Virus record (IMG/VR): IMGVR_UViG_3300037297_000342
Source of the DNA: a virus
Length of the DNA: 18,457 bases
Strand: one strand, 5' to 3'
This document shows positions 2,424 to 12,463 of this stretch, one piece after another; position 1 is the first letter of the stretch; every line of letters begins with the position of its first letter. A program made the translations under genes and the position numbers. The notes below the pieces were generated by a model, which did no database searches, was not told the origin of the DNA, and saw nothing but the letters and a program-made list of their open reading frames with translations.

Positions 2424-2891
2424 ATGGGCGTAAGAGAACAGCCAACGGTGGGCCTCGGTCCACCCAAGGTCACCATCGGCTCAGCGATCCGCGGCTGGGC
2501 CGCCCTGGTGCTGGCCGTGACCAGCAAGACCCGGGTCTCTCACATCGACCTGCTGCGCCACGAGGGCCGGTCGAGCAAAGAGCTGGCAGACGCCCGGCGC
2601 CTGCTGGTCTGGGCCTTCCTGGAGGTGGTAGACGTCGACGACGACATGGCCATCGCCTGGGTCGAGCAGTGCGTGGCCCTGGGCCGGCGCAGCATCATGG
2701 ACGGCCTGAAGGGCGACCCGCCGGAGGAGCTGGAGGAGGTCGTGGTGACCTACAACCGGCTCATGCGGGAGATGGGAGACGAGGACGTTCGAGAGGCCGT
2801 GGCAGCCGGCCTGCTGGGCGAGCGCAAGCCACGAGCCCGGGTGTGGCCGCGGGGCTTCCTGCGGCGCCTGGGGCTCACTGAGCAGGAATGA
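2424..2891 (+). CDS. hypothetical protein (in-frame alternative starts at GTG 2343, ATG 2355 and ATG 2403)
   Basis: High GC3 from about 2440 onward. Best SD (AAGGAAAG at 2413-2420) sits 6 nt before ATG 2424. The upstream alternative starts lie in an AT-richer stretch with no SD. No recognisable domain. Confidence 0.45.
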   Translation: MGVREQPTVGLGPPKVTIGSAIRGWAALVLAVTSKTRVSHIDLLRHEGRSSKELADARRLLVWAFLEVVDVDDDMAIAWVEQCVALGRRSIMDGLKGDPPEELEEVVVTYNRLMREMGDEDVREAVAAGLLGERKPRARVWPRGFLRRLGLTEQE

Positions 2892-3150
2892 GCGTCAGGG
2901 CGGGGCCCTTCGCCAGGTCCCTCGCCCGCACCCACTGCGGCTGGTCCAGCTGGGCCATGAAGAGCTCCAGCAACGCCCGGGCCAGTGGGATTCCCGGGGC
3001 GGCCTCCACCGACAGGCAGGCCTCGAAATCATCTGGCAGCTGATGTTTGGAACGGAGCGCGTTGATGCGCTCAGTGCAGAACCTGTGGAAGGATGGGTCC
3101 CGACGTGCCTCCAACAGGGCGTACTCGACTTGAGTCTGATGTGTCAGCAT
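2875..3150 (-). CDS. hypothetical small protein (very uncertain; the ORF extends to 3177 but would then overlap the upstream ATPase gene by about 107 nt)
   Basis: A minus-strand ORF with high GC3 fills the 179-nt gap between convergent genes. No SD, no domain. Could be an artefact. Confidence 0.2.
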   Translation of the reverse strand: MLTHQTQVEYALLEARRDPSFHRFCTERINALRSKHQLPDDFEACLSVEAAPGIPLARALLELFMAQLDQPQWVRARDLAKGPALTLIPAQ

Positions 3151-4318
3151 TTGGTTCAGGTAGCTCGGGCACCACAACGTGCTCTTGCAGCTCCTCCTCG
3201 AGAATTGCTTCCTCCTCTTTTACCATGTATTCCGCGAGGTCGACAAGGCTGATCTTCTTCAAGGCCTGCCACGCCGGGACCATGCGTGTGCGGGAGCCGT
3301 CGGGACCGAAGGGCTTCGGCAGCTCTGCATTCTTGTCGGCCAAGCCTTCTTCCTCCAAGGCCATCAGGGCCTGCAGTATCTTCTCGGGGCGAACGCCGAG
3401 AGTCGCAGCGACGTCCTGGTTGGTCATCGGGACCGTCGCGTCGCGCAGCACCTTGTAGCAGGCATGCTTCCAGTATTCGAGCACGACGCCGGAGTGGTCC
3501 TTGTCGTTATAGAAAGCAAAGGTGACCTGCTTCAGCTCGTCGTCGTTGCGTGGGACAGCCGAGAACACATGCCCCTTCTTCCCGTTGCGCTGCTTGAGAC
3601 TCTCGACGGTGACGATCTCCGTCTCGCCGGAGGGGAGCCCGAGCTTCTTCTTCCAGGTCTTGACGTGGAGCACAGCGTCGGCCCAGCCGTACCAAGCCGA
3701 AGAGCCGCGGGGCGTGGGGTCCTTGCCCTTCGTCTCGTGGTGAATGATGATGAACGAGGTCTGGTACTCGTCGACCATCCGGTCTACTGCCCGACGGAGA
3801 GCCTTGGTCTCCTTCGACGAGTTCTCGTCGCCGCTGAAGAACGAGTCGAGGGGGTCGAGCACGACCACGATGGGCTCGATGGTCTTGATGACTTGCTCAA
3901 GCTCCTCGGTGTCGAGGGCATCGTCGAGGCAGAAGGGCTGCTGGCAGAAGTAGAGGGGAAGCTCAGCCGGGTTGACCGCATGGGCTCTGGCGTGAGCGAG
4001 GAGCCGGTCCTTGTTGTCGAAGATGGACCCCTCCGTGGAGTTGAGCAGGACCGGCCCGAACTTGTTGACCGTAAACTGCCGCAAAAGCATGCGTTCGGCG
4101 CTCAGGGCCACACAGAGGTCGAAGATTATGGTTGACTTGTACGTGCCCCCCTGGCCAAATACTAAGGTTCGGCCCGCTCGGGGGATCATGTTTTCAACGA
4201 TCCAGCGGTCCGGGTCGTCCTTGAGCGCCAGCAAATCCTTAACGGTGTAAATCTGGTGGGACCTGCGGGCCAAGTTGCCTCCTGTCTCTACCGTAGAAGT
4301 TGCTGTGCGGTGCGTCAA
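3071..4318 (-). CDS. AAA_25/RepA-like (DnaB-C-terminal-like) RecA-fold ATPase with C-terminal winged-helix domain; probable replicative helicase/loader-type protein
   Basis: 'DLLALKDDPDRWIVENMIPRAGRTLVFGQGGTYKSTIIFDLCVALS' (P-loop), 'IVVVLDPLDSF' (Walker B), 'IIIHHETKG'. The C-terminal 'MTNQDVAATLGVRPEKILQALMALEEEGL' is wHTH-like. TTG start at 4316-4318, with a weak GGTGA SD. Confidence 0.8.
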   Translation of the reverse strand: MTHRTATSTVETGGNLARRSHQIYTVKDLLALKDDPDRWIVENMIPRAGRTLVFGQGGTYKSTIIFDLCVALSAERMLLRQFTVNKFGPVLLNSTEGSIFDNKDRLLAHARAHAVNPAELPLYFCQQPFCLDDALDTEELEQVIKTIEPIVVVLDPLDSFFSGDENSSKETKALRRAVDRMVDEYQTSFIIIHHETKGKDPTPRGSSAWYGWADAVLHVKTWKKKLGLPSGETEIVTVESLKQRNGKKGHVFSAVPRNDDELKQVTFAFYNDKDHSGVVLEYWKHACYKVLRDATVPMTNQDVAATLGVRPEKILQALMALEEEGLADKNAELPKPFGPDGSRTRMVPAWQALKKISLVDLAEYMVKEEEAILEEELQEHVVVPELPEPNADTSDSSRVRPVGGTSGPILPQVLH

Positions 4319-4632
4319 GGAATCACCGGATCCGTTGGGCTCCGGCGATGGTTGACCCTTCTACCACGGCGAAGATCTTCGGCGCAACAATTTTGTGAGA
4401 TTCTTGTGAGGTCTCAGGGATTTCTGAGAGATCTTGCTCCCTTGTGAAATAGTTATTGACAAGGGAGATCCAACTGAGGTATTGGTGCTGTTCGATGCAC
4501 TCGGTCACCCTCCAAGATCCGCTGGAGGGCTGCGTTCTATCGTGGCCCACAAGATGGCCAGGACTCTGCAAGCTGGAGGCCTGCCCACCCGAGCGGTTTG
4601 ACAGCCTGCGCCGGATCCCTGGGGTCCGGCCC
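4319..4632. promoter_or_regulatory. Divergent intergenic control region between the - strand ATPase gene and the + strand SNF2 gene; candidate promoter/operator/origin
   Basis: Perfect 9-bp inverted repeat ctcccttgt(4437-4445)/acaagggag(4459-4467), spacer 13 nt. TTGACA hexamer at 4456-4461. TTGTGAG direct repeats at 4393 and 4404, and TTGTGAA at 4442. 7-bp inverted repeat ccctcca(4508-4514)/tggaggg(4523-4529). Confidence 0.4.
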
Positions 4633-6318
4633 ATGGAGAACAAGAAGAAGCCAGAGGAGACAGGTTGGTACGTGCCGCAGTCGCTCCTCGACATGGGCCT
4701 GTTGCCAGCCAACCTTGAGGACTACGATCCCGAGCCGAACGACAGGACACCGTCGGGCTTGAAGCTCCGTCGGTATCAGGCTCGCACGGTGACCTTCCTT
4801 CGTCAGACGACCACGATGCGTGAGGGTAATCTGCTGTGGGCGGACCCCGGCCTCGGCAAGACTGTCTCCTCGCTGCAAGCCAACTGGCTCGACGGCTACC
4901 TGCAGCGCCCCGGGCTCATCGTCGGACCGAACATCGCCAAGGGCGTTTGGTGCGACGACGATTCCGACGCCAAGGTGCACTACAACCTGACGGTGTTGTC
5001 CCTGGAGGGGATGAAGAACATTGACCCGGGGTTCCTCGAGCACCACAACTGCTTCTTCTGCCACTACGAGATCCTGCAGGCGTGGCAGCCGTGGATATTC
5101 GCCACGCTCAAGCCTGCCTGGATGATTCTCGACGAGAGCCACTTCCTGATCCACCAGAAAGCCCAGCGCTCCAAGGCAGCACGGCAGCTCGCCCTGTGCA
5201 ACACCATCGAGCGACGCTTCTGCCTCACGGGCACAGCCATCCCCAACGAGAGGCTGGACCTGTGGAACCAGGTGGCGACCTGCCAGCCCCGACAGTGGGG
5301 CCCCTCGCACCACGACTTCGGCGTTCGCTACTGCGGCGGCCAGCGCATGGCCCCCGAGGATGGCGGCCACTGGACCTATGAGGGTGAGAGCAACACCGAC
5401 GAGCTTCGCGCCAGGCTGGCCGGCACGGTGCTGCGCTACACGACCGAGGAAGTCGGCGACGAGCTGCCTCCGATGGAGCGCCACGTCATCGAGGCTGAGG
5501 GCATCGAGGAGCACCTGCTCGACGACTACTCGCTGGCTCAGCGCGACACCATCGGCTACCTCAAGCTCAAAGGCAAGATTCCCGACGAGGCGGCCACGAT
5601 CACGCTCGGCAACACGACCATCAAGCTGTCGAAGAATGACCGCAAGCCGGGCGCCGCGCGACTGGTCTGCCTGACGACGCTGATCGGCATCCTGTCGGAG
5701 ATGAAGCAGGCCGCCGCGATCAAGGCTGTCATCTCCATCCTCGGCCAACACAACCGACTCGTCGTGTTCACCTGGCGACGGAAGACGGCAGAGTATATAT
5801 ACGACAAGATCGCCGGCATGGTTGCCTCCGGGGTGAAGATCTCCGGCAAGAGCCCGATGGTCTACGGGCCGGTCCACGGCGAGATGGACATGAAGGAGCG
5901 CAAGGCGCTCGCCAAGGAGTTCGCCAAGGACGAGTGCAGCATCTACATCGCCACGATGGGCTCGGCCGGCACCTCCATCAACACCCTGTCGGCAGCCTCG
6001 GCCTGCTTGCTGGTGGACCTGCACTGGAACACCTCACAGCTGCGCCAGGCCGAGAAGCGGGTGCACCGCGATGGCTGCACCGCGGAGAAGGTCGACATCT
6101 ACTACCTGGTGGTCAGGCAGACGGTGGACGATCTCTTCATCGAGAAGCTGGAGCAGAAGGCCAGGGAGGCGATGAAGATTGCCCCACGGGACGAGAGTGA
6201 CCTGTCGCTGGTCCGCGACTTGACACCTGAGAAGGCCTCGGGCGAGTTCGATTTCGAGCTGCTGTGTGCGAGGCTGATGGACTACGACGCAGAATGGGAA
6301 GAAGGAGTTATGGCATGA
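4633..6318 (+). CDS. SNF2-family (DEAD/DEAH-like) helicase
   Basis: 'LRRYQARTV' Q-motif region, 'LLWADPGLGKTVSSL' (motif I), 'MILDESHFL' (motif II, DExH), 'LTGTAIPNERLDLWNQV' (SNF2 motif III), helicase-C region with 'QAEKRVHRDG' (motif VI). Start taken at ATG 4633 (MENKKK...). The in-frame TTG at 4456 lies inside the operator-like repeat and encodes a W/C-rich peptide. Confidence 0.85.
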   Translation: MENKKKPEETGWYVPQSLLDMGLLPANLEDYDPEPNDRTPSGLKLRRYQARTVTFLRQTTTMREGNLLWADPGLGKTVSSLQANWLDGYLQRPGLIVGPNIAKGVWCDDDSDAKVHYNLTVLSLEGMKNIDPGFLEHHNCFFCHYEILQAWQPWIFATLKPAWMILDESHFLIHQKAQRSKAARQLALCNTIERRFCLTGTAIPNERLDLWNQVATCQPRQWGPSHHDFGVRYCGGQRMAPEDGGHWTYEGESNTDELRARLAGTVLRYTTEEVGDELPPMERHVIEAEGIEEHLLDDYSLAQRDTIGYLKLKGKIPDEAATITLGNTTIKLSKNDRKPGAARLVCLTTLIGILSEMKQAAAIKAVISILGQHNRLVVFTWRRKTAEYIYDKIAGMVASGVKISGKSPMVYGPVHGEMDMKERKALAKEFAKDECSIYIATMGSAGTSINTLSAASACLLVDLHWNTSQLRQAEKRVHRDGCTAEKVDIYYLVVRQTVDDLFIEKLEQKAREAMKIAPRDESDLSLVRDLTPEKASGEFDFELLCARLMDYDAEWEEGVMA

Positions 6319-7523: not shown

Positions 7524-8246
7524 ATGAGTAACGGAGGAGGATTCCTTCCCATCAACCTCAACAACGTGCAGCCGGCCGTCGGGTTCGACTACCCGCCGGG
7601 TCTGTACATGTTCCAGGTCGAGTCGACCGAGATCCGGACCAACAACGATGGCTCCGGGCAGCGTCTGCTCGTCAACAACACCATCGTCATGGGCCCGGGC
7701 CCGTCGACGCAGTTCCAGGGACGGAAGCTGGCCAACAGCTACCAGCTCTCGGAGAAGGGTGCGCCCTTCCTGAAGCGCATGTTCCTGTCCTGCGGCATCA
7801 CCGACGAGTTCATCGCCCAGAACGGCGGGAACGTCCAGGCCGAGTGGCTGCACGGGCGCCAGTACGTGGCCCAGGTCATCAAGCAGGGCACCTACACCAA
7901 CATCACCAACGAGCGTCCGCTCAGCGAGTGGGACGCGGCGGTGAAGCAGGGCGGCGGCAACAGCGGGCAGGTCCAGCAGCCGGGCACCACCCCGGCGGCC
8001 CAGCCCTCCCTGCTCCAGCCGGTCGCGGCCCCCGCCGCCGCCCCGGCGCCCGTGGCCCAGCCGCAGCCGGTCGCGCAGCCCATGGCCCAGCCCATGGCCC
8101 AGCCGCAGATGGCCGCCCCGGTGGCCCAGCCGGCCCCCGTGGCGCAGCCGCAGCTGCCCCAGCCCCAGGCCGCCATGCCGGCCCCGCAGGCCGCCCCGGC
8201 GGGGATCCCCGCCCCGGCGCCCCCTCCGGGCAAGGTGGGCCAGTAG
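7524..8246 (+). CDS. DUF669-like phage ssDNA-binding protein (Sak4 partner) with long P/A/Q-rich C-terminal tail
   Basis: SD AAGGAGA at 7511-7517, 6 nt before the ATG. An N-terminal globular part of about 150 aa is followed by a roughly 90-aa low-complexity tail (PVAQPQPVAQPMAQPMAQPQ...). The assignment rests on position after Sak4 and the domain architecture; I could not run a similarity search. Confidence 0.55.
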   Translation: MSNGGGFLPINLNNVQPAVGFDYPPGLYMFQVESTEIRTNNDGSGQRLLVNNTIVMGPGPSTQFQGRKLANSYQLSEKGAPFLKRMFLSCGITDEFIAQNGGNVQAEWLHGRQYVAQVIKQGTYTNITNERPLSEWDAAVKQGGGNSGQVQQPGTTPAAQPSLLQPVAAPAAAPAPVAQPQPVAQPMAQPMAQPQMAAPVAQPAPVAQPQLPQPQAAMPAPQAAPAGIPAPAPPPGKVGQ

Positions 8247-8265
8247 TAGTCTGACCTGAAGGCAA

Positions 8266-9629: not shown

Positions 9630-9849
9630 GATGCGCCTGATCGCCGTGGAGGAGCCGCAGTTCCGCGACCGCTGGCGCATCGGCATCTCCGGGGCGAACG
9701 GGGGGAATGGGCGTGTGCCAGGCTGGGAGAACGCCAGGTTCTACTCCTACTCGGCCTGCGCCACGGCCATCGACTGGATCGAGAAGTTCGGCGGTTCGTA
9801 TGCCGCCTATCTATCGTGGAAGAAACAACATCGAGGTAAAGGAGAGTAG
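9622..9849 (+). CDS. hypothetical small protein
   Basis: 75 aa. High GC3. Fills the gap between the UDG-like gene and the MVP-like gene. Alternative start at ATG 9631. Confidence 0.4.
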   Translation: MPKMRLIAVEEPQFRDRWRIGISGANGGNGRVPGWENARFYSYSACATAIDWIEKFGGSYAAYLSWKKQHRGKGE

Positions 9850-9853
9850 AGCA

Positions 9854-12424
9854 ATGGAAGAATCGGAGCGCAGAGGCAAGATCCTGGTGGTGCCTCCTGG
9901 CTCGTTCGCCTACGTGTTGGACGAGAACAAGGGCGACATCACCACCTTCGTCGGACCGCAGAAGAAGGACCTGACGGCGCAGGACATCCCGGTCGTCTTC
10001 GACGCCGACGAGGACGAGTTCCGCAGGGTGTCCATGAAGGAGGCCATCATCCCGCTCTACCGGGCCGAGGTGGACTCCTACATCATCCTGGAGAACCCCG
10101 CGGTGAGGGGCGAGCACCCCGTGGAGGGCAAGAGCACCAACGAGGCCGAGCGCCTGCGCCACGGCGTGAAGGAGAACGTCCCCGGGCCGTGCGCCTTTGC
10201 CCTGTGGCCGGGCGAGGTGGCCACCGTGGTGCCGGGGCACCGTCTGCGCCGGAACCAGTACCTCTACGTCCGCATCTACGACGCGGAGGAGGCCAACAAG
10301 AACCCCAACGCCGTCTACGGCGGCCAGGCGCCACCGGTTCGTGAGGGAGAGAACCCCGAGGGCTTCTTCGTCGGCCAGGAGATCAAGATCACGGGCGAGG
10401 ACGTGAGCTTCTACATGCCGCCGACAGGCGCTGAGGTCGTGCCGGTGGACGCGAACAACGAGGAGTACGTCCGCGACGCCGAGACCCTGCAGAAGCTGGA
10501 GTACGCGGTGCTCGTCTCGGACAAGGGCGAGAAGCAGTACTGCTACGGCGAGAGCGTCGTCTACCCCGACCCGTACCAGCACTTCGAGGTGCGCGAGGGC
10601 AAGCGCAAGTTCCGGGCCATCGAGCTCTCGGAGATCTCCGGCGTCTACGTCAAGGTCATCAAGCCCTACGAGGAGAACGGCCACCAGTACAAGGAGGGCG
10701 ACGAGCTCTTCATCACGGGCGCAGAGAAGACCATCTACTTCCCGCGTCCCGAGCACGCCGTCATCAAGTACGGCAAGGAGACCCGCCACTTCGCCGTGGC
10801 CATCCCGCCTGGAGAGGGCCGCTACGTTCTCGACCGGATGAGCGGCGAGATCAAGATCGAGCGGGGCCCCCAGATGCTGCTGGCGGACCCTCGCACCCAC
10901 GTCATCACCAAGCGAGTCCTCACCGACTCCGAGTGCCGGCTGCTCTACCCCGGAAACGACGAGGCCCTCGAGTACAACCGCAGCCTGCGCCGAGCCCTGA
11001 GCACGACCATGGAGGACGCCGACGCCGCCATCTCCGCGGAGATGGTCGCCTCGCTGTCCAACGTCGGCGGCGGCACGGTGGGCCAGGCCATGTACTCCTC
11101 GGCGCTGGCTCCCGACCGGGCCACGGCGATGGGCGACATGCTGCTGAAGTCGCCCTCATCCGAGGTGGTCGGCGACTCCTTCGACCGGAAGGTCAAGCAC
11201 ACCAAGCCGCGCACGGTCATCCTCGACACCAAGTACGAGGGCGTGGTCACGGTCAAGGTCTGGAACGGCTACGCCGTCCAGGTGGTCAACCGGGCCGGGG
11301 AACGGCGCGTGGAGCGCGGCCCCAAGACGGTCCTGCTCGAGTACGACGAGACGCTGGAGAAGCTCTCCCTGTCCACGGGGAAGCCCAAGAACACCGACAA
11401 CAACATCGAGACGGACTACCTCAAGGTCACCGGCAACTATGTGACCGATGTCATCATCGACATGGAGACCGCCGAGATGGTGCCCGTCGAGGCCAAGGTC
11501 AAGTTCAAGGTGGACTTCGAGGGTGACGAGAACGAGTGGTTCAACGTCGACAACTACGTCAAGCTGCTCTACGACCGGGCTCGGTCCATCATCAAGGCGG
11601 CCATCAACAGGACTCCTGTCGGCGTCCTGCGCAACGAGAAGGCAGCGGTCATCCGCGACGCCATCCTGGGCAAGAAGCCCGAGGATGGAAGTGAGCGCAA
11701 GGGCCTGGCCTTCGCCGAGAACTCGATGCGGGTGACGGACGTCGACGTCCTGAGCCTGAAGATCAACGACGAGGAAGTCGCCGGGATGCTGGCCGAGGCC
11801 CAGCGCGCCAGCCTGAAGGGCATGGCCCGGGTGGCCCAGCGCGAGGCCGAGCTGGCGAACCAGACCCGTCTGGAGGAGATCGACCGGTTGCTGGCCGAGG
11901 CGGCCCACATCACGGCCACGCGCAAGCTGGAGCTGCAGGAGCAGCACAAGGACGAGACTCAGAAGGCGCTGATGGCCGAGGAGACCCGCAAGAAGGCCTA
12001 CGAGGAGACCCGGGACGCCCGGGCGCTCGCCGGCCGGGAGCGTCAGCTGGAGCTCGAGGGCAAGGTCCGCGAGGGCCTGCTGGCCGACCACGAGCTCGCG
12101 ATGCAGAAGGCCAGGGAGCAGCAGACCCTGGCGCTGGAGAACCTGAAGGCCCAGGTGCAGGCAGTGATCGACAAGGCCCAGGCCATGGACCCGCACGTCG
12201 CGGTGGCCCTGGAGCGGCTGACGGACGAGGTGTTCCTGCGCGGCATCACCGAGGGTTTCGGGGAGTGGGCGGCAGTCAAGGGTATCGGCTTGGCCGAGGC
12301 GGCCAAACAGGTCCTCGACTTCATGCCTGAGGGCAAGTTCGAGGTGCTCAGGCACATCGGACAGGCCGGGACGAGGAGCGGCAACGGGGAGGGCGAGCCC
12401 CGCGTGCCACGCCGTCACGGCTAG
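9854..12424 (+). CDS. Major Vault Protein (MVP) homologue: MVP repeat domains + SPFH-like shoulder + cap-helix coiled coil
   Basis: SD AAGGAGAG at 9838-9845. N-terminal 'ILVVPPGSFAYVLDENKGDITTFVGPQK' matches MVP repeat 1 '[28 protein letters not shown]'. A second copy 'IPPGEGRYVLDRMSGEIKIERGPQ' occurs. 'VTDVIIDMETAE' matches MVP 'FTDVITIETAD'. 'FAENSMRVTDVDVLSLKINDEEVAGMLAEAQRASL' matches the MVP shoulder '[33 protein letters not shown]'. A coiled-coil stretch of more than 130 aa (ELANQTRLEEIDRLLAEA...KAQVQAVIDKAQ) corresponds to the cap-helix. 857 aa versus about 860-890 aa for eukaryotic MVP. Confidence 0.8.
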   Translation: MEESERRGKILVVPPGSFAYVLDENKGDITTFVGPQKKDLTAQDIPVVFDADEDEFRRVSMKEAIIPLYRAEVDSYIILENPAVRGEHPVEGKSTNEAERLRHGVKENVPGPCAFALWPGEVATVVPGHRLRRNQYLYVRIYDAEEANKNPNAVYGGQAPPVREGENPEGFFVGQEIKITGEDVSFYMPPTGAEVVPVDANNEEYVRDAETLQKLEYAVLVSDKGEKQYCYGESVVYPDPYQHFEVREGKRKFRAIELSEISGVYVKVIKPYEENGHQYKEGDELFITGAEKTIYFPRPEHAVIKYGKETRHFAVAIPPGEGRYVLDRMSGEIKIERGPQMLLADPRTHVITKRVLTDSECRLLYPGNDEALEYNRSLRRALSTTMEDADAAISAEMVASLSNVGGGTVGQAMYSSALAPDRATAMGDMLLKSPSSEVVGDSFDRKVKHTKPRTVILDTKYEGVVTVKVWNGYAVQVVNRAGERRVERGPKTVLLEYDETLEKLSLSTGKPKNTDNNIETDYLKVTGNYVTDVIIDMETAEMVPVEAKVKFKVDFEGDENEWFNVDNYVKLLYDRARSIIKAAINRTPVGVLRNEKAAVIRDAILGKKPEDGSERKGLAFAENSMRVTDVDVLSLKINDEEVAGMLAEAQRASLKGMARVAQREAELANQTRLEEIDRLLAEAAHITATRKLELQEQHKDETQKALMAEETRKKAYEETRDARALAGRERQLELEGKVREGLLADHELAMQKAREQQTLALENLKAQVQAVIDKAQAMDPHVAVALERLTDEVFLRGITEGFGEWAAVKGIGLAEAAKQVLDFMPEGKFEVLRHIGQAGTRSGNGEGEPRVPRRHG

Positions 12425-12430
12425 CAGCAC

Positions 12431-12463
12431 GGGCCGGCGGGCCAGTTGCTGGTCCGCCGGCCC
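12431..12463 (+). terminator. GC-rich hairpin immediately after the MVP-like stop (about 13/14-bp stem gggccggcgggcca / tggtccgccggccc, 4-nt loop), no U-tract; possible intrinsic terminator or mRNA-stabilising 3' stem-loop
   Basis: Seen in sequence 7 nt after the TAG at 12422-12424. Confidence 0.4.

Follow-up and report, generated by a model that had tools for sequence, protein, structure and literature searches.

A likely sigma-70-type promoter with a predicted leaderless SNF2 mRNA and a conserved pair of direct repeats between divergent helicase genes of an uncultivated phage

Back-to-back sigma-70-type promoters, one of which gives a leaderless transcript, are known from phage lambda in the form of PRM and the leaderless cI mRNA. 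The Pho box, the site of winged-helix regulators of the OmpR/PhoB type, consists of two 7-bp direct repeats separated by a 4-bp gap, with a period of 11 bp. The iterons of plasmid origins are typically longer, at 17–22 bp, and occur in three or more tandem copies; iteron origins include oriV of RSF1010, which works with RepC and the RepA helicase, and those of the pPS10/F/P1 type, which combine iterons with an inverted-repeat operator. Finally, helicases with a C-terminal winged helix have been proposed to recognize the origin in the cases of phage P4 alpha and pRN1 ORF904 (PMC2777425).

The locus described here lies in an 18,457-nucleotide stretch of viral DNA (IMG/VR record IMGVR_UViG_3300037297_000342, hereafter the window), which by its gene content and by Pfam and PHROG annotation is a phage replication module. 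A UvrD-like helicase gene (72–2282) and a gene for a protein without an assigned family (2343–2891) are followed by two divergent genes. The first encodes a 400-residue RepA-like helicase of the AAA_25, RecA-fold type with a C-terminal winged helix-turn-helix (3071–4273, minus strand, start codon TTG 4273; hereafter the ATPase), and the second a 607-residue SNF2-family helicase (4495–6318, plus strand, corrected start; Pfam SNF2-rel_dom and Helicase_C). The module further encodes Sak4-like AAA_24, zinc-ribbon, UDG-like and major-vault-protein-like proteins and a family-A DNA polymerase. The rightward operon runs in the order SNF2 helicase, Sak4-like AAA_24, zinc-ribbon and UDG-like genes, and onward to PolA, and the leftward unit consists of two genes, encoding the RepA-like winged-helix helicase and a conserved 84-residue protein.

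The public call for the SNF2 gene (P0001) begins at ATG 4633 and yields 561 residues, which is too short. The sequence MRSV.LQDPLEGC opens 15 SNF2 homologues of 595–602 residues and aligns with MHSVTLQDPLEGC in the window (alignment A1), and because the N-termini of these 15 homologues align there, the coding start is placed at ATG 4495 and not at 4633. The start is thereby moved by 138 nt, and a conserved 46-residue N-terminus that the public calls drop is regained. The TTG at 4456 simply belongs to the -35 box described below. For the ATPase, alignment with the N-termini of homologues begins at residue 1 of the protein read from TTG 4273, the public gene call agrees with this start, and a ribosome-binding site, AGGAGG, can be read 4 nt upstream (4278–4283, minus strand). 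The true ATPase/SNF2 spacer comprises 4274–4494, a total of 221 bp with a GC content of 51% compared with 64% window-wide. An earlier sequence-only reading of this DNA had treated 4385–4530 as intergenic, and this holds for 4385–4494; since SNF2 starts at ATG 4495, as the alignment of its homologues indicates, 4495–4530 is coding sequence, including the second of the inverted repeats discussed below. A scan of 4100–4800 returned no intrinsic terminator and neither hairpin is followed by a T-run on either strand, no tRNA was found, and Rfam gave nothing at the gathering score, its single weak hit having E = 0.9.

No relatives at the DNA level were found among GenBank phages or among GTDB species genomes. 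Protein searches and contig look-ups in metagenomes and IMG/VR yielded 15 further independent lineages with 39–82% SNF2 identity to the window, the closest being L004, with 82% identity over the first 80 SNF2 residues. One additional contig was left out of the lineage count because it differs from the window by 1 mismatch in 12.3 kb and so comes from one and the same genome. The divergent ATPase/SNF2 orientation is kept in every lineage whose contig reaches upstream of SNF2. Some of the relatives are viral contigs of 111–194 kb that encode an Amidase_2 endolysin and keep the synteny; on these, in the 21-kb stretch that was read, the opposite strand carries only the ATPase gene and a conserved gene of 74–84 codons, and the stretch belongs to a long co-directional gene array. 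When viral contigs were scanned with the 14-mer AAATAGTTATTGAC, at least 120 matching stretches turned up outside the five known viral relatives.

Anchored on the SNF2 start, the window and all 15 relatives share the pattern TTGAC(A/G/T/C)-N16–18-TA....-N6–10-ATG/GTG. The hexamer TTGACA, which the sequence-only reading had singled out as a consensus promoter element, is indeed present at 4456–4461 (plus strand), and the first five of its bases are found in 16/16 lineages. It lies 33 nt from the start codon in the window and about 28–35 nt among the 16 lineages, and the window holds only three copies of TTGACA in its 18.4 kb. By conservation and position it is a real, deeply conserved -35 element, correctly placed before SNF2. 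The -10-like hexamer, TATTGG (4480–4485, plus strand), follows 18 nt after the -35 box. Its TA is invariant among the lineages, and the final T of the hexamer is missing here as in most of them; for want of a T at the last -10 position of TATTGG, a consensus promoter scanner reported no site here. The dinucleotide TG occurs 2 or 3 nt upstream of the TA in 7/15 lineages, resembling an extended -10 element, and five lineages have TAGGA(C/A) as their -10-like hexamer, which could alternatively be read as a distant AGGA ribosome-binding site. The -35 box is immediately preceded by an A/T-rich, UP-element-like block, AAATAGTTA (4447–4455, plus strand), with a putative role in promoter activity, and a block of the form (A)AATAGT(T/A)(A/T/G)TTGAC is common to the window, L004, L002, L021 and L022.

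Transcription is predicted to start on the A of ATG 4495 or no more than about 3 nt away, so that the predicted start and the start codon together occupy 4492–4497 (plus strand). There is no Shine-Dalgarno sequence 5–10 nt upstream of SNF2 in the window and none at a functional distance in the other lineages; neighboring genes of the window, among them those of the ATPase and AAA_24, do carry ribosome-binding sites of the form GGAG, GGAGA, AGGAG or AGGAGG. The CG before the SNF2 ATG is conserved among the lineages. In L008, L020, L027 and L012 the -10 hexamer ends exactly 6 nt before the start codon, the spacing that textbooks give for a leaderless mRNA; the hexamer is TA(C/A)TCT in the first three, which fits TAnnnT, and TATCCA in L012, without the final T as in the window. 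The SNF2 mRNA is very probably leaderless, or nearly so, with its 5' end predicted from the position of the promoter elements.

This arrangement resembles lambda PRM and cI in the TTGACA -35 box, the 16–18-nt spacer, the start codon placed where transcription should begin, the missing ribosome-binding site and the presence of a divergent partner promoter in one control region. It differs in that the -10 element of the window, like that of most lineages, lacks the final T, and in that the operator triplet of lambda is absent. Unlike those of lambda, the promoters and the start described here are predicted from sequence.

The partner promoter, which would serve the ATPase gene as a mirror image of the first, is predicted at 4290–4318 (minus strand), with a -35 box TTGACG at 4318–4313, a 17-nt spacer and a -10 box TACGGT at 4295–4290. 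TTGAC(A/G/T) is present at this position in 10/13 lineages, 8 of which also have a TAnnnT-type hexamer after 17–18 nt; in L010 and L022 the -35 box is kept and a clean -10 hexamer is missing. With 137 bp between the two -35 boxes, the promoters are separate, unlike the overlapping PR and PRM of lambda. The sequence-only reading, the interval of which spans only the rightward half of the spacer, had overlooked this leftward promoter. Its proposal of a repressor-controlled divergent promoter is borne out with regard to the divergent promoters, both of which are conserved, and fails for the inverted-repeat operator, which is missing in the 11 relatives tested.

Between the two -35 boxes lies the direct repeat TTGTGAG-ATTC-TTGTGAG (4393–4410, plus strand), two 7-bp units with an 11-bp period that form a candidate tandem-binding site. 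The three TTGTGA(G/A) copies noted previously were found where they had been described, as TTGTGAG at 4393–4399 and 4404–4410, with starts 11 bp apart, and as TTGTGAA at 4442–4448. The third of these overlaps the edge of the A/T-rich block at 4447–4455. Degenerate copies lie 18 and 20 bp further on from the pair, the two units of which have their centers about 86 and 97 bp ahead of the predicted SNF2 transcription start. We compared the window with L002, L004, L021 and L022 in a five-lineage alignment (A6); the L004 contig is truncated and contributes only the second TTGTGAG-type repeat. The aligned lineages show no gap anywhere between the repeats and the start codon, and no insertion or deletion alters the distance from the repeats to the -35 box. 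The repeat positions are kept as TTG.GA.A followed by (T)TG(Y)GAG, with the GA at 4408–4409 invariant. Over these five lineages, few in number and of shared ancestry, conservation is 0.97 in the -35 box, 0.85 in the A/T block and 0.79 in the repeat pair, compared with 0.54 in the promoter spacer and 0.57 and 0.63 in the segments that flank the repeats. The sister lineages L003 and L023 have ATG(C/T)GAA-N4-AGGCGAG within a fully conserved 34-nt block, and the adjoining bases vary.

Judged from these alignments, the repeat pair looks like a real cis element in a fixed helical phase. As an island of conservation that five lineages keep at an unchanged spacing from the -35 box, it probably serves as a site for a binding protein. 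The Pho box has the identical geometry of 7 bp, 4 bp and 7 bp, head to tail and one helical turn apart. TTGTGAG is, however, not a Pho-box sequence, and the pair lies about 86–97 bp upstream of the predicted start instead of replacing the -35 box.

Taken together, we consider it likely that 4385–4494 contains the upstream region and the core of a sigma-70-type promoter for the rightward replication/recombination operon, with a leaderless SNF2 mRNA. RNA polymerase would read the -35 box TTGACA at 4456–4461 and the weak -10-like TATTGG at 4480–4485, 18 nt downstream, probably assisted by the A/T-rich block at 4447–4455. Transcription would begin at, or within about 3 nt of, ATG 4495, and the resulting SNF2 mRNA would therefore be leaderless and translated without a ribosome-binding site. 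The canonical promoter lying back to back with it (TTGACG 4318–4313, N17, TACGGT 4295–4290) would drive the leftward two-gene unit. The most likely role of TTGTGAG-N4-TTGTGAG, which lies between the two -35 boxes, is that of a head-to-tail protein-binding site on one face of the helix, and the bound protein would tune one or both promoters, the candidates being the winged helix of the neighboring helicase and a host regulator. As a regulatory feature this is ordinary, one more instance of a familiar element from a phage clade about which little has been learned.

The locus could also contain nothing functional beyond the two promoters, the repeats and a palindrome at 4367–4384 (see below) having arisen by chance in an AT-richer spacer and their conservation reflecting ancestry. 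Tests confined to the window were all negative or borderline, as this explanation would have it. TTGTGAR is not enriched, with 3 copies observed in the window against 2.5 expected, all three of them in this region, and in the 221-bp spacer TTGTGA-type 7-mers number 4 copies (up to one mismatch, both strands) compared with a mean shuffle maximum of 5.3. A k-mer test over the inter-promoter regions of 12 lineages placed GTGAGA(A) and GCGAGAA near the top and yet not above resampled sequences, and the small repeats in the spacer differ lineage by lineage. What chance does not readily account for is that conservation of the repeat pair clearly exceeds that of the adjoining sequence, in the five lineages and again in L003/L023, and that the distance from the pair to the -35 box is free of insertions and deletions. 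GYGAR pentamers also reach 21 per kb in the inter-promoter regions, about double the 10 per kb of the whole loci, although this motif was picked after the data had been seen. On balance we regard an explanation by chance as somewhat unlikely.

A different reading places control of the SNF2 promoter in an inverted repeat on its -35 box, CTCCCTTGT(GAA) N7–13 (TTG)ACAAGGGAG (4437–4467), to which a dimeric repressor would bind over 9–12 bp and so shut the promoter off in this phage. The perfect 9-bp inverted repeat that had been reported with its right arm over TTGACA was recovered, the arms being CTCCCTTGT at 4437–4445 and ACAAGGGAG at 4459–4467, and with one mismatch allowed it is 12 nt long. 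It is locally very stable (folded as DNA, z = -3.35, 0/200 shuffles); arms of a dyad that overlap the -35 hexamer constitute a classical site for steric repression, and the half-site, CTTGTGA / CTTGTCA, resembles the direct repeats upstream. Iteron plasmids pair an operator with iterons in a comparable manner. Against this, the same 50-nt segment folded from 11 relatives gave z values of -1.25 to +1.6, and the dyad is missing in all 11, including L004, which has no hairpin and keeps the TTGACA arm alone; as an element of the whole family it was rejected for this reason. Of this segment only the TTGACA arm is conserved, together with the block AAATAGTTA just before it; the outer arms lie in poorly conserved columns. 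Perfect 9-bp inverted repeats with loops of 3–30 nt number 6 in the window against 2.9 ± 1.8 expected, so about three such repeats per window would arise by chance, and by our own arithmetic the chance of one landing in this spacer is roughly 3–4%. There is no further copy of the half-site pair in the whole 18.4 kb, the half-sites are 22 bp apart center to center, which is unusually wide for a simple dimer, and no repressor gene was found, the small neighboring proteins being without Pfam or PHROG matches. The inverted repeat may serve this phage alone as an operator or may have arisen by chance, and repression through it by a dimeric protein is in our estimation unlikely.

The remaining alternative, that this is an iteron-containing origin, draws on the protein encoded next to it. 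The ATPase matches Pfam AAA_25 with E = 6.7e-29, and a profile of 31 of its homologues matches the RSF1010 RepA helicase, with residues 254–320 matching MarR-family regulators. An AlphaFold model (pLDDT 86.9) has a RecA-fold core and a winged helix at about residues 260–337, made up of helices 260–278, 285–292 and 300–308 and a β-hairpin wing at 312–337, and the top Foldseek matches are the RSF1010 RepA helicase (1nlf, 1g8y), followed by KaiC, DnaB and RadA. The recognition helix (VR.EK) and the wing (GSRTR) are conserved across lineages, and the helix barely varies. The ATPase also has a Crp-like helix-turn-helix hit, and the PDB matches point to the MarR family. With the recognition helix of Crp and its TGTGA-reading residues as the standard of an alignment made by eye, a Crp-like domain as the reader of the TGTGA motif was rejected, those residues being absent. 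The earlier identification of the flanking gene product as RepA-like is thus upheld, its fold being that of RSF1010 RepA with an added winged helix; as evidence for an origin it is circumstantial.

According to the origin reading, the TTGTGAG units act as short iterons for the RepA-like helicase, which would bind them through its C-terminal winged helix and load itself at the AT-rich spacer, perhaps aided by transcription from both promoters. It is not an absurd reading, since a helicase with a C-terminal winged helix is the very arrangement proposed to recognize the origin in P4 alpha and pRN1 ORF904 (PMC2777425). In these proteins, as in that of the window, a hexameric helicase of replicative type carries a C-terminal winged helix by which short repeats beside its own gene could be recognized; P4 alpha and ORF904 are, however, superfamily-3 helicases fused to a primase, whereas the helicase of the window is a RecA-fold RepA/AAA_25 protein with no primase domain, the winged helix of which is nearest to MarR. 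Apart from the RSF1010 RepA hexameric-helicase fold of the neighbor, its confidently modeled winged helix and the conserved recognition helix and wing, the reading gains from the positional conservation of the repeat pair, from a drop in spacer GC to 35–45% over about 80 bp, and from the location of the spacer at the sole strand-switch point in a long co-directional gene array. Like iteron plasmid origins, the locus has an adjoining RepA-like helicase gene, direct repeats and an inverted repeat that shares their half-site and covers a promoter. It departs from them in having two 7-bp copies, and in that the inverted repeat is not conserved and lies on the promoter of the neighboring gene, not on that of the putative initiator.

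In unit length, copy number and tandem arrangement the repeats do not qualify as iterons: the 7-bp unit occurs in just two good copies, the others being degenerate, Tandem Repeats Finder detected no tandem array in the region, and the copy number is not above that of shuffled sequences. The spacer has no extended AT-rich unwinding element, and the DnaA-box pattern gives two one-mismatch matches over the -35 block and is not enriched in the window. GC skew is uninformative with regard to an origin because the direction of transcription switches at the same spot. With everything that is strongly conserved accounted for by the two promoters, we consider it improbable that the repeats are iterons of this kind, and likewise improbable that the spacer is the origin of an uncultivated clade of large phages at which a stand-alone RepA-type helicase recognizes the repeat pair of 11-bp period by its own winged helix and loads itself. 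Were the origin reading true, the system would comprise a one-protein initiator-helicase with flanking divergent promoters that provide transcriptional activation, analogous to P4 alpha and pRN1 ORF904 on a different helicase superfamily.

The sigma-70-type promoter reading supplies a promoter model (TTGACA-N16–18-TA, leaderless) for large environmental phages known only from metagenomes, with contigs of up to about 194 kb, and this model can help to predict early operons. It also offers a hint at the host, which would have a sigma-70-like housekeeping factor and be tolerant of leaderless mRNAs. The DNA of interest is narrowed to the 18-bp site at 4393–4410, for which the helicase's winged helix is the one candidate domain.

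The second inverted repeat of the sequence-only reading, CCCTCCA (4508–4514) N8 TGGAGGG (4523–4529), is present at 4508–4529 (plus strand) and falls within SNF2 codons 5–12, where it encodes T-L-Q-D-P-L-E-G; a regulatory role is not borne out, the segment being coding and without structural conservation over 15 lineages. Several relatives have short inverted repeats at the same place, in pairing registers that differ among lineages, and L004 breaks 3/7 of the pairs by synonymous changes. In a gapless alignment of the 15 lineages, 67.6–70% of the cells pair, a level matched by 120/500 and 36/500 shuffles; covariation across these lineages is not significant, and RNAalifold returned 0 consensus pairs. 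A conserved 5' mRNA hairpin was rejected on the basis of the differing registers, the shuffle-level pairing and the RNAalifold result, and the complementarity is attributed to the conserved Leu (CTC) and Glu-Gly (GAG GGN) codons.

Two further small symmetric elements that the sequence-only reading had overlooked lie in the spacer. The first is the palindrome CGGCGAAGATCTTCGGCG (4367–4384), composed of CGGCGAAGA and TCTTCGGCG, in which 8/9 positions pair and which is not conserved at the aligned position in L002. The second, read from the sequence and too short for statistics, is TCTCAG N6 CTGAGA (4412–4429), the sequence of which is not conserved in the five-lineage alignment. Each lineage has its own small repeats in the spacer.

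Across the whole window, sites matching TTGTGAG with at most one mismatch are rarer than expected (19 sites versus 41 ± 6, the expected count being taken from dinucleotide shuffles), and the plus strand of 4393–4448 holds four of these 19. In L008 and L020, related viruses that belong to a more distant sub-lineage, the region between the leftward ATPase promoter and the rightward SNF2 promoter carries direct repeats of a different sequence, CTGTAT N14 CTGTAT, in place of TTGTGAG upstream of the SNF2 promoter. Upstream repeats may thus be a recurring theme whose sequences are lineage-specific. Within the promoter itself, a semi-conserved TCCA(A/G)CTG-like motif is found between the -35 and -10 elements in several lineages, lying in the spacer at 4462–4479 in the window and the corresponding spacers of L003, L005, L010 and L023; in L005, AGATCCAG(T/C)TG flanks the -35 box on either side.

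Homologues place the start of the SNF2 gene at ATG 4495, so the public gene calls, which begin at 4633 (561 aa), omit a conserved 46-residue N-terminus (DPLEGC...PTRWPG...CP) encoded by 4495–4632, in which Cys, Pro and Gly residues are near-invariant. On the other side of the promoter region, the 3' end of the ATPase gene is overlapped by a conserved minus-strand gene of 74–84 aa (2875–3129 in the window, also present in L003, L006, L019, L022 and L023), by about 59 nt in the window and by 41–62 nt in the four relatives checked. Together with the ATPase gene it forms the sole minus-strand unit within a 21-kb stretch read from the co-directional arrays on viral contigs of 162–194 kb. In several relatives the replication genes are split by inteins or LAGLIDADG homing endonucleases, namely SNF2 in L004 and L009–L011, both ATPase and UvrD in L006, and UvrD in L019; the window copies of these genes contain no inteins.

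Between the UDG-like gene and PolA the window carries a plus-strand gene (9707–12424, 905 aa) with Pfam Vault_3 and MVP_shoulder domains, the product of which resembles eukaryotic major vault protein chains 4hl8 and 6bp7 over residues 511–833 (E ~1e-9). As the gene is absent from the corresponding place in L002, L019 and L023, it looks like a lineage-specific insertion into the phage replication module. A GC-rich hairpin with a 15-bp stem (12431–12463) lies 7 nt past its stop codon; having no T-run, it is not a canonical intrinsic terminator.

The 240-aa protein encoded at 7524–8246 has a low-complexity, P/Q/A-rich C-terminal tail, noted at 7800–8250 of the window. Tandem repeats of 12 nt and 18 nt at 8064–8150 code for this tail, and the GC content there reaches 0.83.
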